From a virus (lineage: Duplodnaviria; Heunggongvirae; Uroviricota; Caudoviricetes), in the IMG/VR virus record IMGVR_UViG_3300036876_000145, positions 83,489 through 102,462 of that record: 18,974 bases of DNA. The stretch is one strand, 5' to 3'. How positions within the stretch are numbered: position 1 is the first letter of the stretch; the number at the start of each line of letters is the position of its first letter. Below, piece by piece: positions 2,640 through 6,823 of this stretch. The translations under genes were made by a program, and so were the position numbers. The notes below the pieces were generated by a model. The model had not been told where the DNA came from and searched no databases. It saw nothing but the letters and a program-made list of their open reading frames with translations.

Positions 2640-2718
2640 ATTCCGATGGCGTGAGCGGCGAAACCACTTGCCCTACAAGCAAGTATCATCGGGGGTTCGA
2701 GTCCCTCTCGGAATACCA
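2640..2718 (+). tRNA. non-canonical tRNA-like gene; anticodon loop CCUACAA reads as Val-UAC with C33; poorly paired D arm; CCA encoded
   Basis: Acceptor ATTCCGA/TCGGAAT. T arm GGGGG-TTCGAGT-CCCTC, then A73 and CCA. Anticodon stem CTTGC/GCAAG. The D region TGGCGTGAGCGGCGAAACCA offers only a 3-bp TGG/CCA stem. The variable region is 7 nt. Confidence 0.5.
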
Positions 2719-2729
2719 AATTTTAATGT

Positions 2730-2804
2730 GTGGGTGTCGTCCAATGGGAGGACTTTCGGTTTGCACCCGGAGAATGCGAGTTCGAGTCTCGTCACTCTAC
2801 ACCA
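2730..2804 (+). tRNA. tRNA-Ala(UGC) with one bulged nucleotide in the 3' strand of the acceptor stem
   Basis: D arm GTCC-AATGGGA-GGAC. Anticodon arm TTCGG-TTTGCAC-CCGGA. T arm GCGAG-TTCGAGT-CTCGT. The acceptor GTGGGTG pairs with CA(C)TCTAC and keeps G3:U70, A73 and CCA if C2795 is bulged. Confidence 0.7.
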
Positions 2805-2810
2805 AATGTG

Positions 2811-2886
2811 CCGTCCGCGACGGTGATAGATACCAGAAAGCTCTTCGGAGCGCTGGAATGGGGATCAGCCCCTTAGTCATCGCGGC
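2811..2886 (+). ncRNA. tRNA-sized structured spacer made of three hairpins, one capped by C(UUCG)G; not a cloverleaf
   Basis: Hairpins are CCGTC-CGC-GACGG (2811-2823), CCAG..GCTC-TTCG-GAGC..CTGG (2833-2856) and GGGG-ATCAG-CCCC (2860-2872). An alternative end pairing is CCGCGA 2815-2820 with TCGCGG 2880-2885. Confidence 0.3.
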
Positions 2887-2896
2887 TAAATTTATA

Positions 2897-2970
2897 AGCG
2901 GATTAGCCAAGTGGTTAAAGGCATCTGCCTGCAAAGCAGACAAGCACGGGTTCGAATCCCGTATCCGCTT
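2897..2970 (+). tRNA. tRNA-Cys(GCA)
   Basis: Acceptor AGCGGAT/ATCCGCT. D arm GCCA..AGGC with an A13:A22 mismatch. Anticodon loop CTGCAAA (GCA at 2931-2933). T arm ACGGG-TTCGAAT-CCCGT. U73. Confidence 0.9.
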
Positions 2971-2979
2971 CCCAAATTT

Positions 2980-3056
2980 GGGGGTATAGTTCCAACTGGT
3001 AGAACAGCGGCTTGTCGCGCCGATGGTTGCGGGTTCGAATCCCGTTACCCCCGCCA
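2980..3056 (+). tRNA. tRNA-Asp(GUC), CCA encoded
   Basis: Acceptor GGGGGTA/TACCCCC. D arm GTTC-CAACTGGTA-GAAC. Anticodon loop TTGTCGC (GTC at 3014-3016). T arm GCGGG-TTCGAAT-CCCGT. G73 and CCA. Confidence 0.92.
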
Positions 3057-3060
3057 GTTT

Positions 3061-3138
3061 GGTGTGTTGGAGGAGTCTGGTCTTCCTCGCTTCCCTGTCA
3101 CGGAAGATATCACACGGGTTCAAATCCCGTACACACCG
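3061..3138 (+). tRNA. second tRNA-Asp(GUC), with an 11-nt D loop and 7-nt variable region; no encoded CCA
   Basis: Acceptor GGTGTGT/ACACACC. D arm GAGG..CCTC. Anticodon arm CTTCC-CTGTCAC-GGAAG (GTC at 3097-3099). T arm ACGGG-TTCAAAT-CCCGT. G73. Confidence 0.8.
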
Positions 3139-3147
3139 CTTTCGTGA

Positions 3148-3179
3148 CTTCCTGAGTATTAAGTAGAGTACTCAGGAAG
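3148..3179 (+). promoter_or_regulatory. 11-bp hairpin sequestering the GIY-YIG ribosome-binding site
   Basis: CTTCCTGAGTA (3148-3158) pairs perfectly with TACTCAGGAAG (3169-3179). The 3' arm contains the AGGAAG SD, 4 nt before ATG 3184. Confidence 0.55.
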
Positions 3180-3183
3180 GTTC

Positions 3184-3834
3184 ATGATGAAATACACAGT
3201 CTACAAAACTGTGAATCTGGTCAACGGCAAGTTCTACATCGGTGTCCACAAGACGGACAATCCGAATGATGACTACCTTGGTTCTGGGAAGTTCATCAAA
3301 CGAGCCGTTGCGAAGTACGGAGAGCAGAATTTTCGCAAGGAAATTTTGGCTGTCTTTGAAATCCAGAGAGAAGCTTTCGATCTCGAAAAGAAACTCGTGG
3401 TTGAAGCGAAAGTTGATCCACTGTGTTACAACCTGAAAGCTGGCGGTGAAGGTGGGTTTGACTGGATCAATCGTAAGGGATTGAATAACTCGAACGAGAA
3501 CGGCGTGAAAGGAAATCGGGTTACAATTGGAAAAATAAAAACTGACCCAAAGGTAAAGAAGCGATTTACTGACAGGATCAATCGAGTTAGACAGTATCGT
3601 ACTCAAGACTACAAAGCTCGAATTCCTTCGATGTTACAAAAGTGGACAGGACAGCATCATACCGCCGAGACAAAGGCTAGACTTAGCGAAACGCATAAAG
3701 GTAAGAGCAACGGACGCTTTGGAAAACAGTGGATGTATCATCTCGAATCGCAGAGATCAAAGCCTGTCTCACCGGACGAGATCAATAGCCACATTGAACA
3801 AGGTTGGTTGATTGGTCGCCGGATGAAATTTTAG
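3184..3834 (+). CDS. free-standing GIY-YIG homing endonuclease (Seg/I-TevI-like)
   Basis: The N-terminus KYTVYKTVNLVNGKFYIGVHKT...YLGSGK...R...E..E is the classical GIY-YIG motif set. The gene sits between tRNA genes. ATG 3187 is an alternative start. The stop is TAG. Confidence 0.9.
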   Translation: MMKYTVYKTVNLVNGKFYIGVHKTDNPNDDYLGSGKFIKRAVAKYGEQNFRKEILAVFEIQREAFDLEKKLVVEAKVDPLCYNLKAGGEGGFDWINRKGLNNSNENGVKGNRVTIGKIKTDPKVKKRFTDRINRVRQYRTQDYKARIPSMLQKWTGQHHTAETKARLSETHKGKSNGRFGKQWMYHLESQRSKPVSPDEINSHIEQGWLIGRRMKF

Positions 3835-3841
3835 GAGAGAC

Positions 3842-4054
3842 GTGAAGATTCTCTACGATGAACAGCGGCATCTGATCACGGTGCCGTACTCGAAAGAGAA
3901 TCTACATGAAGCAGCGCGGCAGTTGGGTATTAAGCGTTGCTGGTTTCACAAAGACCACTACGACGTTCCTAAGAGAATGATGTCTCGGATGTCGGAGACG
4001 GTAGCAGAAAAAGTTTCGCCGCGTGAAGTTTTGAAGATCGTGCGCGGCAAGTAA
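3842..4054 (+). CDS. DUF4031-family small protein (70 aa)
   Basis: The pattern NLHEAARQLGIKRCWFHKDHYDVP matches my recollection of the DUF4031 signature (ELH.FA..G..R.WF....HYDVP). GTG start with a GGAG SD at 3834-3837. Confidence 0.75.
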   Translation: MKILYDEQRHLITVPYSKENLHEAARQLGIKRCWFHKDHYDVPKRMMSRMSETVAEKVSPREVLKIVRGK

Positions 4055-4058
4055 GTTT

Positions 4059-4135
4059 GGATGGATAGCCAAGTAGGAAAGGCGCTCCCCTGCAAAGGGA
4101 GTCATGCGGGGGTTCAATTCCCTCTCCATCCTCCA
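4059..4135 (+). tRNA. second tRNA-Cys(GCA), CCA encoded
   Basis: Acceptor GGATGGA/TCCATCC. D arm GCCA..AGGC (A13:A22). Anticodon arm CTCCC-CTGCAAA-GGGAG (GCA at 4092-4094). T arm GGGGG-TTCAATT-CCCTC. U73 and CCA. Confidence 0.88.
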
Positions 4136-4137
4136 AA

Positions 4138-4519
4138 TGTACCAGTTCGGGACAACCGCTGGCAGGAAGTTTCTGCGGGAGGGAAAGTTCGGGGCTTCAT
4201 AGAGTACCGTGCGGGGTAACTCCCCGGCGACGGCGCAAGCCGTTGACAATTAGAGCTACAGAGACGAGTCACAGAAGGTGTGCTTGGAAGCGCGTAAGAT
4301 TCACGTCGGTAGTGTTGATGTGAAATGCCCGACCAAGTCCCCTGATGTGGGTGAAACGAGCAATCTTCACGGGAAGCAAGTGCAAATAGGCTGACAGGAA
4401 CTACTCGTTCCGTTATGAATCAGCGGGTAGCATGCTTGAGCGTTGGAGTAATTCAACGCCTAGACGAATGGTTGTCGCCGCGCAAGCGGAACAGAACCCC
4501 GGCTAATAGGACTGGTACA
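4138..4519 (+). ncRNA. rnpB: RNase P RNA, bacterial type A (M1-like), apparently complete
   Basis: P1 4138-4146/4511-4519. P2 4151-4157/4470-4476. P3 4162-4176. CR-I-like GGGAGGGAAAGTTCGGGGCTTCATAGAG at 4177-4204. P8 4212-4226. P9 ACGGC-GCAA-GCCGT at 4230-4243. AAGCAAGTGCAAATAGG at 4374-4390. GGGTAGCATGCTTGAG at 4425-4440. GCCTAGACGAATGG at 4458-4471. AACAGAACCCCGGCTAATAGG at 4490-4510. These align with the recalled E. coli M1 RNA sequence. Confidence 0.9.
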
Positions 4520-4541
4520 AGTTTATGAGTTTTTGAACTAT

Positions 4542-4568
4542 GAGCGACCTATATTAGAGAGGTCGCTC
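4542..4568 (+). promoter_or_regulatory. 8-bp hairpin occluding the SD and GTG start of the HNH gene
   Basis: GAGCGACC (4542-4549) pairs with GGTCGCTC (4561-4568). Wobble and AU pairs extend the stem into GTG 4569-4571. The GAGAGG SD lies at the loop/stem junction. Confidence 0.5.
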
Positions 4569-5006
4569 GTGACAAGTCAAAAAGAAGTTCAAAGACAATT
4601 AGGAATGAGTCGAGGAACCGCCAACTACAGATTGGCGCGTCTTTTACTCTTCAAATACATGCAGCAAGCTGGGGCGGACAACTGTTTTCGCTGCGGTCTA
4701 AAGCTTGAAACGGTTGAAGATTTTAGTATTGAGCATAAAAAACCGTGGTTGTACGCATCCCCAGATTTATATTGGGATTTGGAAAATATTGCTTTTTCGC
4801 ATCGCGCATGTAATTCGGGCGCAGCTAGACAGATCAATAAGACCAAAATGAGTCTTAGATCAGTAGGACCGGAAGGAACAAGTTGGTGTACGGAACATAA
4901 ACAGTTTCTTTCAGTCGATGAATTTCAAAAAAATTCCGCTATTTGGAACGGCTTACAAAGGCAATGCAAAGAATGCCGACAAAAGCGAAATAAAAAGCGG
5001 GCTTAG
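4569..5006 (+). CDS. free-standing HNH homing endonuclease
   Basis: CFRCG...SIEHKKPW...NIAFSHRACN is an HNH motif, and a C-terminal CKEC adds a zinc-finger pair. The ORF is open from TTG 4533, but GTG 4569 has a GAGG SD 6 nt upstream. The TAG stop (5004-5006) lies inside tRNA-Gly. Confidence 0.88.
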   Translation: MTSQKEVQRQLGMSRGTANYRLARLLLFKYMQQAGADNCFRCGLKLETVEDFSIEHKKPWLYASPDLYWDLENIAFSHRACNSGAARQINKTKMSLRSVGPEGTSWCTEHKQFLSVDEFQKNSAIWNGLQRQCKECRQKRNKKRA

Positions 5007-5073
5007 CTCACGCTGGTAGAGCGCTGGTCTTCCAAACCGGAGGTAACGGGATCGTCGCCCGTAGTCCGCTCCA
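4997..5073 (+). tRNA. tRNA-Gly(UCC) with an unusual T loop ATCGTCG (A54/U58 swap); CCA encoded
   Basis: Acceptor GCGGGCT/AGTCCGC. D arm GCTC-ACGCTGGTA-GAGC. Anticodon arm CTGGT-CTTCCAA-ACCGG (TCC at 5031-5033). T stem ACGGG/CCCGT. U73 and CCA. The 5' end overlaps the HNH CDS by 10 nt. Confidence 0.85.
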
Positions 5074-5084
5074 AGTTTAGATAT

Positions 5085-5160
5085 GGCGCACTCTGCTAAC
5101 GGCTAGGCAACCACGTTCTCAGCGTGTGAAATGTGGGTTCAAATCCCGCGTGCGCTACCA
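5085..5160 (+). tRNA. tRNA-Glu(CUC), CCA encoded
   Basis: Acceptor GGCGCAC/GTGCGCT (G1:U72). D arm TGCT-AACGGCTA-GGCA. Anticodon loop TTCTCAG (CTC at 5118-5120). T arm GTGGG-TTCAAAT-CCCGC. A73 and CCA. Confidence 0.85.
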
Positions 5161-5167
5161 GATTTTG

Positions 5168-5222
5168 GCTGACCATGTTCGGCAAGGTCAGCGGTTGGGG
5201 GACATGGCTCAGTACAACCGCT
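5168..5222 (+). other. structured spacer in a tRNA-sized slot: two overlapping hairpins, no cloverleaf
   Basis: GCTGACC (5168-5174) pairs with GGTCAGC (5186-5192). AGCGGTTG (5190-5197) pairs with CAACCGCT (5215-5222). The loop of the second hairpin contains TGGCTCAGT, which resembles a D loop. Confidence 0.25.
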
Positions 5223-5231
5223 GATAACCGT

Positions 5232-5307
5232 GGGGCTATGGCGCAGTTGGGAGCGCGTAATCATGGCATGATTAAGGCCGTCGGTTCGAACCCGACTAGC
5301 TCCACCA
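5232..5307 (+). tRNA. tRNA-Ala(GGC), CCA encoded
   Basis: Acceptor GGGGCTA/TAGCTCC with G3:U70. D arm GCGC-AGTTGGGA-GCGC. Anticodon loop ATGGCAT (GGC at 5265-5267). T arm GTCGG-TTCGAAC-CCGAC. A73 and CCA. Confidence 0.93.
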
Positions 5308-5313
5308 GATTTT

Positions 5314-5388
5314 GCGGAAGTAGTTCAGCGGTAGAATATTTCCTTGCCAAGGAAGGGGTCGCGGGTTCAAATCCCGCCTTCCGCTCCA
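5314..5388 (+). tRNA. tRNA-Gly(GCC), CCA encoded
   Basis: Acceptor GCGGAAG/CTTCCGC. Anticodon loop TTGCCAA (GCC at 5346-5348). T arm GCGGG-TTCAAAT-CCCGC. U73 and CCA. Confidence 0.92.
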
Positions 5389-5399
5389 AGTTTAGAAGT

Positions 5400-5461
5400 T
5401 CATGGATGCCTAGATGTCGGTGGCTAACCGAAAGGTCGCGGGTTCAATGTCCGTTCCATGT
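5400..5461 (+). ncRNA. 62-nt truncated tRNA-like RNA with normal acceptor and T arms but no normal D-plus-anticodon region
   Basis: Acceptor CATGGA/TCCATG. T arm GCGGG-TTCAATG-TCCGT. The interior is only 31 nt and folds in one of two ways. Fold 1 is GCC-11 nt-GGC plus ACC-GAAA-GGT. Fold 2 is TCGGT-GGCTA-ACCGA with no D arm. It abuts the next tRNA with no spacer. Confidence 0.4.
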
Positions 5462-5537
5462 GGGGCTATAGCGCAGTTGGGAGCGCGTCTCGTTCGCAAC
5501 GAGAAGGTCGTGAGTTCGAATCTCACTAGCTCCACCA
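5462..5537 (+). tRNA. tRNA-Ala(CGC), CCA encoded
   Basis: Acceptor and D arm are nearly identical to Ala(GGC), with G3:U70. Anticodon loop TTCGCAA (CGC at 5495-5497). T arm GTGAG-TTCGAAT-CTCAC. A73 and CCA. Confidence 0.93.
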
Positions 5538-5544
5538 AGTTATT

Positions 5545-5617
5545 GCGGGTGTAGTTCAATGGTAGAATATTCGGTTCCCAACCGAAAGATTTGTCGGTTC
5601 GAGTCCGACCATCCGCT
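5545..5617 (+). tRNA. tRNA-Gly(CCC)
   Basis: Acceptor GCGGGTG/CATCCGC. D arm GTTC-AATGGTA-GAAT. Anticodon loop TTCCCAA (CCC at 5577-5579). T arm GTCGG-TTCGAGT-CCGAC. U73. CCA is not fully encoded. Confidence 0.88.
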
Positions 5618-5624
5618 CCGTTTT

Positions 5625-5768
5625 ATGAGAGAGTGTCCAAAGTGCGGTAAGAAAGAACAATGGGAAATCGGTTGGATTTCTACTACCAATGAATGGCGCT
5701 GGCATTGTCTGTCTTGTGATATTCGTTTTAATGATGATGGCGTAATTTACACACCAGAAAAAGTTTAG
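5625..5768 (+). CDS. 47-aa zinc-ribbon protein (MRECPKCGKKEQWEIGWISTTNEWRWHCLSCDIRFNDDGVIYTPEKV)
   Basis: A CPKC...CLSC pair of Cys knuckles. The track ORF 5559-5768 begins inside tRNA-Gly, so ATG 5625 is the first start outside it. No clear SD. Confidence 0.55.
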   Translation: MRECPKCGKKEQWEIGWISTTNEWRWHCLSCDIRFNDDGVIYTPEKV

Positions 5769-5787
5769 GGCCGTGGGACTGCATTGG

Positions 5788-5815
5788 GGTGGTTCGAATC
5801 TCACTAGCTCCACCA
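5788..5815 (+). pseudogene. orphan 3' fragment of tRNA-Ala (T loop, acceptor 3' strand and CCA)
   Basis: 5792-5819 is a perfect 28-nt copy of 5514-5541, the 3' end of tRNA-Ala(CGC) plus its spacer. No matching 5' half or cloverleaf lies upstream. Confidence 0.6.
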
Positions 5816-5822
5816 AGTTTAC

Positions 5823-5926
5823 GTAGGCTTCCGAGGGATACCTCGGTGACAGTTGTTCTGAGGTCATCTCTTCATGAGGGGCTGAACAGGGAACGGCAGC
5901 GTGGGGAAACCCACAAGCCTACACCA
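5823..5926 (+). ncRNA. 104-nt tRNA-shaped RNA of unrecognised family: 8-bp acceptor-like stem plus A-CCA, SelC-like 6-bp/4-nt D arm, long anticodon-like arm with loop CUUCAUG, and a GAAA-capped T-arm substitute
   Basis: GTAGGCTT (5823-5830) pairs with AAGCCTAC (5915-5922), then A and CCA. D arm CCGAGG-GATA-CCTCGG at 5831-5846. TGTTC 5854-5858 pairs with GAACA 5884-5888, stacked on an imperfect stem 5862-5869/5877-5883 with loop 5870-5876. GTGGG-GAAA-CCCAC at 5901-5914. The flanking spacers match those of real tRNAs in the array. Confidence 0.5.
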
Positions 5927-5929
5927 TTT

Positions 5930-6005
5930 GCGCTGTTAGATTAGCGGTAAAATCGTCACCATGACAAGGTGAAAATCGGGGGTTCGATTCCCTCACGGCG
6001 CACCA
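5930..6005 (+). tRNA. tRNA-Val(GAC), CCA encoded
   Basis: Acceptor GCGCTGT/ACGGCGC. D arm GATT-AGCGGTAA-AATC. Anticodon loop ATGACAA (GAC at 5963-5965). T arm GGGGG-TTCGATT-CCCTC. A73 and CCA. Confidence 0.92.
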
Positions 6006-6017
6006 GTTTTTAAATAT

Positions 6018-6095
6018 GGCGTTGTCTTCTAAATGGTCTAGGAAAACTGACTTTCAATCAGTGGAATGCCGGTTCAACTCCGGTCAACGCTACCA
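6018..6095 (+). tRNA. tRNA-Glu(UUC), CCA encoded
   Basis: Acceptor GGCGTTG/CAACGCT (G1:U72). Anticodon arm ACTGA-CTTTCAA-TCAGT (TTC at 6053-6055). T arm GCCGG-TTCAACT-CCGGT. A73 and CCA. Confidence 0.85.
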
Positions 6096-6102
6096 GAATT
6101 GA

Positions 6103-6177
6103 GAGGGAGTAGCTCAGCGGTAGAGCAGAATATTGCCAATATTCAGGTCGCGGGTTCAACTCCCGTCTCCCTCTCCA
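6103..6177 (+). tRNA. second tRNA-Gly(GCC), CCA encoded
   Basis: Acceptor GAGGGAG/CTCCCTC. D arm GCTC-AGCGGTA-GAGC. Anticodon loop TTGCCAA (GCC at 6135-6137). T arm GCGGG-TTCAACT-CCCGT. U73 and CCA. Confidence 0.92.
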
Positions 6178-6226
6178 ACATTTATGCGAATCTATTCAAA
6201 AGTTTATTTTCGCTTTATGGTGTGTT

Positions 6227-6382
6227 ATGAGAAAACTAAAGAGACTAAGCAAGGTCAAACTCGTGAAGGAAATGTCCAGGGAGAGGGTGCCAGTCCCCGC
6301 GACCCGCAAGATTGAAAATAAGAAAAAGAAATTTTTGCGTTACTTAGAAACACATTGGCAGGAAGATGAATTGGGGGTATAG
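6227..6382 (+). CDS. 51-aa highly basic ORF (MRKLKRLSKVKLVKEMSRERVPVPATRKIENKKKKFLRYLETHWQEDELGV), hypothetical
   Basis: Own translation; below the track cutoff. The stop TAG (6380-6382) lies inside the next tRNA-Ala. No clear SD. A 43-codon alternative frame starting at ATG 6184 looks less protein-like. Confidence 0.3.
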   Translation: MRKLKRLSKVKLVKEMSRERVPVPATRKIENKKKKFLRYLETHWQEDELGV

Positions 6383-6448
6383 CTCAGCTGGGAGAGCGCA
6401 TCGTTTGCAACGATGAGGTCGTCGGTTCGATCCCGTCTACCTCCACCA
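6373..6448 (+). tRNA. tRNA-Ala(UGC), CCA encoded
   Basis: Acceptor GGGGGTA/TACCTCC with G3:U70. D arm GCTC-AGCTGGGA-GAGC. Anticodon loop TTTGCAA (TGC at 6406-6408). T arm GTCGG-TTCGATC-CCGTC with one U:U mismatch. A73 and CCA. Confidence 0.9.
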
Positions 6449-6463
6449 AAATTTAGGGGATGT

Positions 6464-6823
6464 ATGTTAAAGGAATTAAACGACTACAACTGGGCTGAAG
6501 TATTTGGTGAGGGAAGCGGTGGAAACTGCTTTTCGATCAAGCCAAATCGTGCCCCACAAGATACGGAGACATCCATTGGTACGTTTTCCCGCGAGGATGT
6601 AAAAAAACTCTATGGGCAATCTGACGGTGAAAATGATGAACAAAGTTGGGTATGTTGGGGTAAACTAAAAGACGGTCGCTGGTTTGTTGCTCGTGGCGAC
6701 TGCGATTACACCGGCTGGGATTGCAGTGCATCTAATAGCGGAGATGTTGCATCGTCTAAAAAAGATATTATCCGTTTTGGGCTTGATGCTAACGAGCGAT
6801 CACGTTTTAATTTGACGATTTAA
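6464..6823 (+). CDS. hypothetical protein, 119 aa (MLKELNDYNWAEVFGEGSGGNC...WVCWGKLKDGRWFVARGDCDYTGWDC...)
   Basis: The track ORF 6413-6823 starts inside tRNA-Ala. ATG 6464 follows an AGGGGA SD at 6455-6460. The stop is TAA. No family recognised. Confidence 0.7.
   Translation: MLKELNDYNWAEVFGEGSGGNCFSIKPNRAPQDTETSIGTFSREDVKKLYGQSDGENDEQSWVCWGKLKDGRWFVARGDCDYTGWDCSASNSGDVASSKKDIIRFGLDANERSRFNLTI

Follow-up and report, generated by a model that had tools for sequence, protein, structure and literature searches.

An exact duplication of a tRNA-Ala 3' end around a tRNA-Gly(CCC) and zinc-ribbon gene cassette in a phage tRNA array: a candidate recombination scar

Introduction

How does a perfect copy of the 3' end of a transfer RNA (tRNA) gene come to stand downstream of that gene without a gene of its own, and what does it say about the DNA enclosed between the two copies? 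The question is raised by a stretch of 18,974 nucleotides (nt) of the virus record IMGVR_UViG_3300036876_000145 (positions 83,489 to 102,462), referred to here as the window, whose coordinates are used throughout and refer to the + strand unless stated. The window holds a phage tRNA array, probably that of a jumbo phage, in which the 28-mer GTTCGAATCTCACTAGCTCCACCAAGTT forms the end of an intact tRNA-Ala(CGC) gene and recurs downstream as an orphan fragment, with a tRNA-Gly(CCC) gene and a small open reading frame (ORF) of the zinc-ribbon type in between. The reading preferred here, to which we give about an even chance, is that break repair or recombination in a highly recombining array, probably started by an endonuclease, had its breakpoint in the T-loop and left the orphan behind as a non-functional scar.

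The Duplicated End of tRNA-Ala(CGC)

The 28-mer is present in exactly two copies, both on the + strand (Table 1), as the initial annotation of this DNA had claimed; no further copies were found in the window at up to three mismatches, and 200 shuffles gave no match. Copy 1 consists of the final 24 nt of tRNA-Ala(CGC), from G53 (the last base of the 5' T-stem strand) to A76, followed by AGTT; the gene itself carries a G3:U70 pair. Copy 2 was called as a tRNA neither by ARAGORN nor by the Rfam tRNA model (E ≤ 10). Nothing in the 52 nt before it aligns with the Ala tRNAs of this phage or its relatives, no canonical cloverleaf and no alignable 5' part (acceptor strand, D arm, anticodon arm) were found in 5769-5819, and the would-be 5' strand of its T-stem reads GGTGG as against GTGAG in the Ala gene. 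The earlier description of an orphan without a 5' half and with a degenerate T stem thus holds, whereas the 278 bp that had been given for the DNA in between is the distance from start to start: 250 nt lie between the copies, and these do contain tRNA-Gly(CCC) and the 47-amino-acid (aa) ORF.

When the ten 28-mers that run from T-loop to trailer in the array are compared, the one next most similar to the repeat is 82% identical, and the pair is therefore the only perfect duplication of the array; at 82% identity, 28 matches out of 28 would be expected at about 0.4%. Such perfect identity argues for recency, although it could also reflect constraint. Because copy 2 is a perfect and sharply bounded copy of the end of the neighbouring gene, it is recent and informative on the breakpoint: the exactness and uniqueness of the duplication, and the abrupt way in which it stops at G53 and the T-loop, support its reading as a recombination scar.

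Table 1. Features around the duplicated tRNA-Ala end (window coordinates)
Feature	Position	Strand	Remarks
SegB-like GIY-YIG homing endonuclease gene	3184-3834	+	phrog_314, 2.5e-43; Pfam SegE_GIY-YIG, NUMOD3
Bacterial class A RNase P RNA	4139-4522		Rfam, 169 bits
HNH homing endonuclease gene	4569-5006	+	Pfam HNH, phrog_23251; between RNase P RNA and tRNA-Gly(TCC)
tRNA-like remnant directly upstream of Ala(CGC)	5389-5461	+	repeat family D13; called by neither ARAGORN nor Rfam
tRNA-Ala(CGC), intact	5462-5537	+	ARAGORN; Rfam tRNA, 70.4 bits
Repeat copy 1	5514-5541	+	T-loop, 3' T-stem, 3' acceptor strand, ACCA, trailer AGTT; exact match
tRNA-Gly(CCC), intact	5545-5619	+	ARAGORN; Rfam, 66.1 bits
Zinc-ribbon ORF, 47 aa	5625-5768	+	translation, CPKC...CLSC; CPxC...STTNEW...CxxCDIRFN family
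Joint between ORF stop codon and orphan, 23 nt	5769-5791	+	
Repeat copy 2, orphan tRNA-Ala 3' fragment	5792-5819	+	exact match; preceded by G, so that it reads GGTTCGAATCT
tRNA-like structured RNA, 104 nt	5823-5926	+	four helices, 8-bp acceptor-like stem, 3' ACCA; fold z-score -4.6
tRNA-Val(GAC)	5930-6005	+	ARAGORN; neighbour of Ala(CGC) in related arrays

The Bracketed Block Compared with Related Arrays

A first set of relatives, retrieved from IMG/VR with the phosphoesterase (L001-L006), lacked arrays. Searches with the phosphoesterase and a 189-aa helix-hairpin-helix protein led to a second set (L019-L022, L026, L027, L029-L031, L034-L036) whose arrays are diverged from that of the window and syntenic with it, one of them (L026) lying on a 332-kb viral contig. 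These are the next relatives beyond contigs of the same phage, and their neighbouring proteins are only about 65-70% identical to those of the window.

Ala(CGC) and Val(GAC) are neighbours in 8/8 related arrays. In six of them Val(GAC) follows Ala(CGC) after spacers of 10 nt (L026), 13 nt (L027), 59 nt (L019), 132 nt (L021), 257 nt (L030) and 387 nt (L031); L029 and L036 also have them side by side, but in reversed order. According to tblastn, the interval between the two genes contains neither Gly(CCC) nor an Ala fragment nor a zinc-ribbon gene in any of the eight. Since nothing comparable intervenes in any of them, the block that separates Ala(CGC) from Val(GAC) in the window is an insertion, derived relative to the family. 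The usual place of Gly(CCC) is after Gly(GCC), as observed in L021, L026, L027, L031 and L034. In the window, Gly(GCC) (6103-6177) is followed by a 195-nt stretch (6178-6372) with a basic 51-aa ORF (6227-6382) that has no homologue in the related loci, and no Gly(CCC) is found there. The Gly(CCC) at 5545-5619 is the single one of the array, and its closest relative is the Gly(CCC) of L031 (80%). It has the look of a gene that was moved and not of one newly acquired, and the joint between it and the ORF does not look native. The earlier suggestion that arrays acquire their members as small cassettes has only loose support. ORFs wedged between tRNAs are common in the related arrays; L031 has one of 141 aa (4654-5079) that fits exactly into the interval between Gly(CCC) and Ala(GGC).

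The 3' side of the block is formed by the tRNA-like RNA at 5823-5926, whose shorter arms have 6 bp with a 4-nt loop and 5 bp with a tetraloop, and whose long arm contains an invariant core of 31 nt; the apical loop of the long arm, UUCAUGA, resembles a CAU anticodon loop. A homologue is found in L019 (7827-7930) with an identical 31-nt core, and between the two RNAs 10 of 37 pairs are compensatory (both sides changed) while 100% stay paired. No Rfam match was obtained, and a covariance model found the RNA in the window phage and L019 only, among 18 loci. This covariation supports its interpretation as a genuine and new structured RNA gene. In L019 the RNA is preceded by a complete tRNA and the linker AAGTTTAC, with TTT on the other flank, and the same flanks are present in the window. 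The 3' junction of copy 2 (CCAAGTTTAC plus the 5823 element) matches this native junction between tRNA and element, and copy 2 therefore marks the original place of a tRNA 3' end. On the 3' side of copy 1, AGTTATT and then Gly are found, like an ordinary spacer between tRNAs. The only two joints that look non-native are those between Gly(CCC) and the ORF and between the ORF and the T-loop.

Two exact-protein look-ups traced contigs of the same phage, up to 108 kb long, in metagenome assemblies from peat and bog. Among the 17 contigs recovered, from different samples and assemblers (JGI, ENA), the segment 5381-5935 is identical in 17/17; as these contigs are identical across the whole array, the fixation of the orphan in them is uninformative. 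Exact searches with the 28-mer gave 0 matches in IMG/VR. An empty site, predicted as the junction GTGAGTTCGAATCTCACTAGCTCCACCAAGTTTACGTAGG, had 0 matches in JGI metagenome contigs, a result without weight given that the collection does not hold this phage: the conserved core of the 5823 element also gave 0 matches in those contigs, from which it follows that the phage is absent from the collection altogether, as well as 0 matches in IMG/VR. Public phage and plasmid records returned generic tRNA similarity only.

Content of the Cassette

The Gly(CCC) gene ends in TCCG and not TCCA, so that, in contrast to most other tRNA genes in the array, its CCA is incompletely encoded; it also lacks the AAGTTT that commonly serves as trailer. 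The ATG of the zinc-ribbon ORF lies 5 nt past this gene, with no Shine-Dalgarno sequence visible in 5615-5630, and its mRNA would be nearly leaderless after tRNA processing. A promoter and terminator scan returned nothing near the cassette.

An exhaustive phmmer search with the 47-aa ORF retrieved 62 proteins at E ≤ 1e-3, mostly of 45-100 aa and 45-65% identical; a word-indexed search returned the query itself only. The consensus of the family is CPxC...(W)LSTTNEWxYxCxxCDIRFNxxG, with four cysteine ligands plus the T-N-x-W and R-x-N motifs; in the alignment, C4, P5, C7, T20 and R34 are invariant and N22, W24, C28, C31 and N36 nearly so. None of the 53 proteins found by a profile search carries a Pfam domain, and the family is unnamed and has no Pfam model. 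With the ORF itself, Pfam and PHROGs gave sub-threshold generic zinc-ribbon matches only, and the PDB gave nothing significant either by sequence or by fold, the latter with an AlphaFold model of predicted local distance difference test (pLDDT) score 84. On conservation, the ORF is a real and complete small phage gene of a stand-alone family. The initial annotation had asked whether it is the remnant of a larger endonuclease or recombinase. This was rejected, since the homologues are small stand-alone proteins and the ORF is a full-length member of their family. A tie between the zinc ribbon and tRNA arrays was likewise rejected: three homologues located on long contigs are surrounded by densely packed small genes of the ordinary sort, with no tRNA array, and 0 related arrays encode one. 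The impression of an ASCH-like N-terminal extension in longer family members was dropped when Pfam did not confirm it.

Compared with the corresponding part of tRNA-Ala, the joint between the ORF and the orphan agrees in GTG.G only. It shows no similarity in related arrays, no tRNA alignment and a fold no better than shuffles. A stable joint fold of the orphan and the ORF region was also considered and rejected, as these too fold no better than shuffles.

Endonuclease Genes and tRNA Debris

Two homing endonuclease genes lie upstream of the duplication. The 216-aa product of the GIY-YIG gene is 37% identical to RB32 segB over 100% coverage (E = 6e-35); segB of RB32 sits in the tRNA cluster of that phage, a location that according to its annotation is conserved in T4. 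In the report on T4 SegB (Brok-Volchanskaya et al. 2008, PMC2330249), the enzyme is described as recognizing 27 bp, with the T-loop motif GGTTCRANTCC at the start and often CCAR at the end, as cleaving just 3' of CCAR, and as causing the T4 tRNA region to be inherited preferentially while markers of the recipient are lost. The 28-mer of the window has the form GTTCGAATCTC...CCAA plus 3 nt: on the 5' side it is bounded at the T-loop, the insertion point follows CCAA by 3 nt, and it thus spans this T-loop...CCAR layout. The same layout is found in 13 tRNAs of the array, and the specificity of a homologue at 37% identity can be taken from SegB only by analogy.

According to tblastn, a GIY-YIG gene is absent from the arrays of L019, L026 and L027, and an HNH gene is present among these in L026 only, at another position, 53% identical to that of the window and beside tRNA debris. 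This debris is a chimeric, anticodon-less tRNA fragment (5999-6063) with a Glu-like 5' half and the Ala-type 3' end CTAGGTCCACCA, adjoining the HNH gene (6084-6488); fragment and gene are both inserted so as to separate Ala(TGC) from Glu(CTC), whereas L019 and L027 have these two tRNAs side by side. The L026 case supports the link between inserted ORFs and tRNA debris as a second instance. In the window, the last codons of the 145-aa HNH ORF overlap the first 10 nt of tRNA-Gly(TCC) (4997-5006).

A further tRNA-like remnant stands directly upstream of Ala(CGC), with the T-arm GCGGGTTCAATGTCCGT, an anticodon arm like that of Gly(CCC) and no D arm. Its homologue in L026 (5165-5230) has the same position upstream of Ala(CGC), and its presence there already makes the remnant older than the duplication of 28 nt. 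Two readings fit it, a pseudogene in slow decay or a minimal tRNA-like element that is conserved. A single tandem duplication yielding both this remnant and the orphan was rejected on the same ground.

A Possible Origin and Its Alternatives

The T-loop is the most conserved motif of tRNAs. From the duplication, the inserted block and the endonuclease genes we infer a break, its cause and an order of events as follows. In the ancestor, tRNA-Ala(CGC) would most likely have been joined through AGTTTAC to the tRNA-like RNA, followed by tRNA-Val(GAC). A double-strand break would have fallen in the Ala gene, in or beside its T-loop-to-CCA end; its most plausible source is a homing endonuclease of the SegB type, for instance the product of 3184-3834. 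Repair would then have copied from an ectopic or co-infecting template bearing tRNA-Gly(CCC) and the small zinc-ribbon gene, and the copied strand would have rejoined the broken end at the T-loop, leaving the intact Ala gene on the left and the duplicated fragment from T-loop to trailer on the right. The cassette may persist because it contains the sole tRNA-Gly(CCC) of the array, the usual slot of which is taken by the 51-aa ORF.

The endonuclease route is favoured because the array has a SegB homologue and the 28-mer spans a site of the SegB type, and to this extent the earlier mention of endonuclease-triggered conversion gains support. Several observations weigh against it. The bracketed segment has no endonuclease gene, the GIY-YIG and HNH genes lying 1.7 kb and 0.5 kb upstream respectively, and classical homing of an endonuclease gene with its flanks is therefore not what happened here. 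The SegB homologue is distant, as said above, and nothing singles out Ala(CGC) among the tRNAs that share the site layout. The 23 nt upstream of copy 2 give a microhomology of 3-5 nt, which is compatible with chance. No donor, empty site or intermediate relative was found, and the order of events was not observed; spontaneous recombination free of any endonuclease would leave the same scar. A bolder extension is that the 28-mer from T-loop to CCAR serves as a portable homing site, by which blocks of site, tRNA and passenger ORF spread between the arrays of co-infecting jumbo phages. This is a long shot; if it were true, miniature non-autonomous mobile cassettes that use SegB-like endonucleases in trans would reshuffle phage tRNA repertoires.

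The main rival is an in-situ truncation in two steps, in which a tandem duplication of Ala(CGC), or of Gly(CCC)-Ala, was followed by the replacement of the 5' two-thirds of the second Ala gene by the ORF-bearing 172 nt at 5620-5791, no endonuclease being needed. We regard it as unlikely without being far-fetched: the 3' flanks of both repeat copies are native-like and both ORF joints foreign-looking, the order Gly(CCC)-Ala(CGC) is found in L019 and Gly(CCC)-ORF-Ala(GGC) in L031, and wedged ORFs are, as seen above, frequent. Nevertheless, two events are required, no relative has two Ala(CGC) genes, and the candidate partner at 5389-5461 is strongly diverged and already in L026, so that it cannot share a recent duplication with a 28/28 match. 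Retention of the orphan for a function, whether as a 3' processing or stability element of the ORF transcript, as a 5' leader of the tRNA-like RNA or as a decoy or target for an array endonuclease, would account for its 28/28 identity as compared with at most 82% among the other paralogous 3' ends, for its fixation in 17 contigs and for its standing where a full tRNA precedes the same element in L019, and a hairpin resembling a mini-helix can be drawn. This hairpin is no more stable than shuffles (z-score +0.39; region +0.99), no homologue of the fragment was found in related arrays and the fixation carries no information; a function is improbable, and the scar is probably inert.

Site-specific integration, which the initial annotation had put forward, fares worse. 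A small circular cassette would have entered through an attachment site running from the T-loop to the 3' end of tRNA-Ala, by means of a tyrosine integrase acting in trans, so that the tRNA was regenerated and its original 3' end displaced. The repeat does begin at the T-loop, and an intact tRNA with a displaced 3' fragment as direct repeat is the geometry of tRNA islands, as given in the Islander report (PMC4383910). On the other hand, no recombinase is encoded in the 250 bp and no recombinase domain was found among the window ORFs scanned, known islands exceed the insert in size hundreds of times, other members of the zinc-ribbon family reside in small-gene clusters of the ordinary kind that have no tRNAs, and no second cassette flanked by this repeat occurs in the window. 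We hold integration to be very improbable. As to an empty site, all 17 contigs of the same phage are occupied and the arrays with Ala(CGC) beside Val(GAC) are distant ones, which tells neither for nor against it. A misjoin induced by repeats during metagenome assembly is conceivable in so far as tRNA arrays are repeat-rich; the identical structure in 17 contigs of different samples and assemblers, together with a repeat of 28 nt that is shorter than the reads, makes its chance practically negligible. The reading as a scar of break repair or recombination is the one retained in what follows.

The Surrounding Array

The array extends over 2640-6448 and contains 16 tRNAs called by ARAGORN; the window also encodes a DNA methylase, the GIY-YIG and HNH homing endonucleases, a metallophosphoesterase and proteins of phage-specific families. 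The RNase P RNA is not confined to the window. It was also found in L019 (6543-6876), L021 (7137-7454) and L026 (4604-4902), with scores of 169-189 bits against a gathering score of 100, always between tRNA-Cys and tRNA-Gly(TCC) in the four diverged phage arrays checked (4/4). In the arrays of the window, L019, L021, L026, L027, L029-L031 and L034-L036, the tRNAs are almost only those for Val, Ala, Asp, Glu and Gly, plus Cys; the former set covers every GNN codon box, usually with all isoacceptors. Outside this set are only one Ile(GAU), in L035, and the unassigned calls that ARAGORN made in L029 and L034, two in all. In a literature search, neither an RNase P RNA encoded by a phage nor tRNA arrays confined to GNN codons were found to have been described, an absence that is no proof. 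This context (RNase P RNA, GNN plus Cys tRNAs and the new tRNA-like RNA) is more remarkable than the scar itself.

The nearest relatives of adjacent tRNAs belong to different phages, at 80-96% identity. Additionally, the 70-aa DUF4031 protein encoded at 3842-4054 is 93% identical to its copy in L019 (6248-6460), whereas the flanking proteins, including the phosphoesterase, are about 65% identical. At the level of sequence comparison, this mosaic pattern indicates frequent exchange between phages, with array segments that would have been exchanged recently. Ala(CGC) of the window is 88% identical to Ala(GGC) of L026 (5089-5164), which suggests isoacceptor switching through replacement of the anticodon arm; almost all differences between the two fall in that arm and in two compensating acceptor pairs.

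Some further observations concern the array at large. Val(CAC), present in most relatives, is missing from the window between Glu(TTC) and Gly(GCC) (compare 6096-6102). The gaps between tRNAs at 2801-2895 and 5161-5231 may hold unannotated RNAs: the first shares near-identical blocks of 27 nt and 19 nt with L019 (5772-5847), and the second has a two-hairpin fold (z-score -2.0). Conserved tRNA-like segments that bear a T-arm and are not called by ARAGORN were noticed in L019 (7290-7345), in L030 (6790-6845), and at 7630-7680 of L030 together with 7290-7340 of L031. The arrays of the relatives seem rich in non-canonical tRNA-like genes.

Comparison with Known Systems

The scar is a new instance of a kind that is known and expected from known biology. 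Genomic islands and prophages in tRNA genes, as treated in the Islander report (PMC4383910), likewise have a regenerated tRNA and a displaced 3' fragment as their end repeats. Unlike them, the block of the window has no integrase, measures 250 bp instead of kilobases and lies in a phage genome rather than in a bacterial chromosome as target; neither a sign of excision nor an empty site was seen for it. With the pseudo-tRNAs of phage and bacterial arrays it shares a truncated tRNA piece among intact genes, and other debris of this sort is present at 5389-5461 and in L026 (5999-6063). The orphan differs from these in being a perfect and sharply bounded copy of the end of the neighbouring gene.

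The closest parallels are offered by T4 SegB and the T-even tRNA cluster (PMC2330249). In both cases a free-standing GIY-YIG gene lies inside a phage tRNA cluster, related phages exist that lack the endonuclease gene and differ in tRNA content, and the recognition site of T4 SegB, from the T-loop to CCAR, is the very stretch duplicated in the window. A duplicated site flanking a block of tRNA and ORF is not mentioned in the passages of the report that were consulted. The differences are that the bracketed segment of the window is devoid of an endonuclease gene, that the specificity of the homologue is a prediction only, and that host and phage group are unrelated to those of T4, the window phage being known from peat metagenomes and the related contigs reaching 332 kb. 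Read as a recombination scar, the orphan would pin a breakpoint to the T-loop of a tRNA in an array that encodes a SegB homologue, and it would offer a concrete and datable example of how phage tRNA repertoires are reshuffled and how small passenger genes arrive between tRNAs. If the link with the endonuclease is true, the T4 SegB model would extend to unrelated environmental phages, some of them with contigs in the jumbo range.

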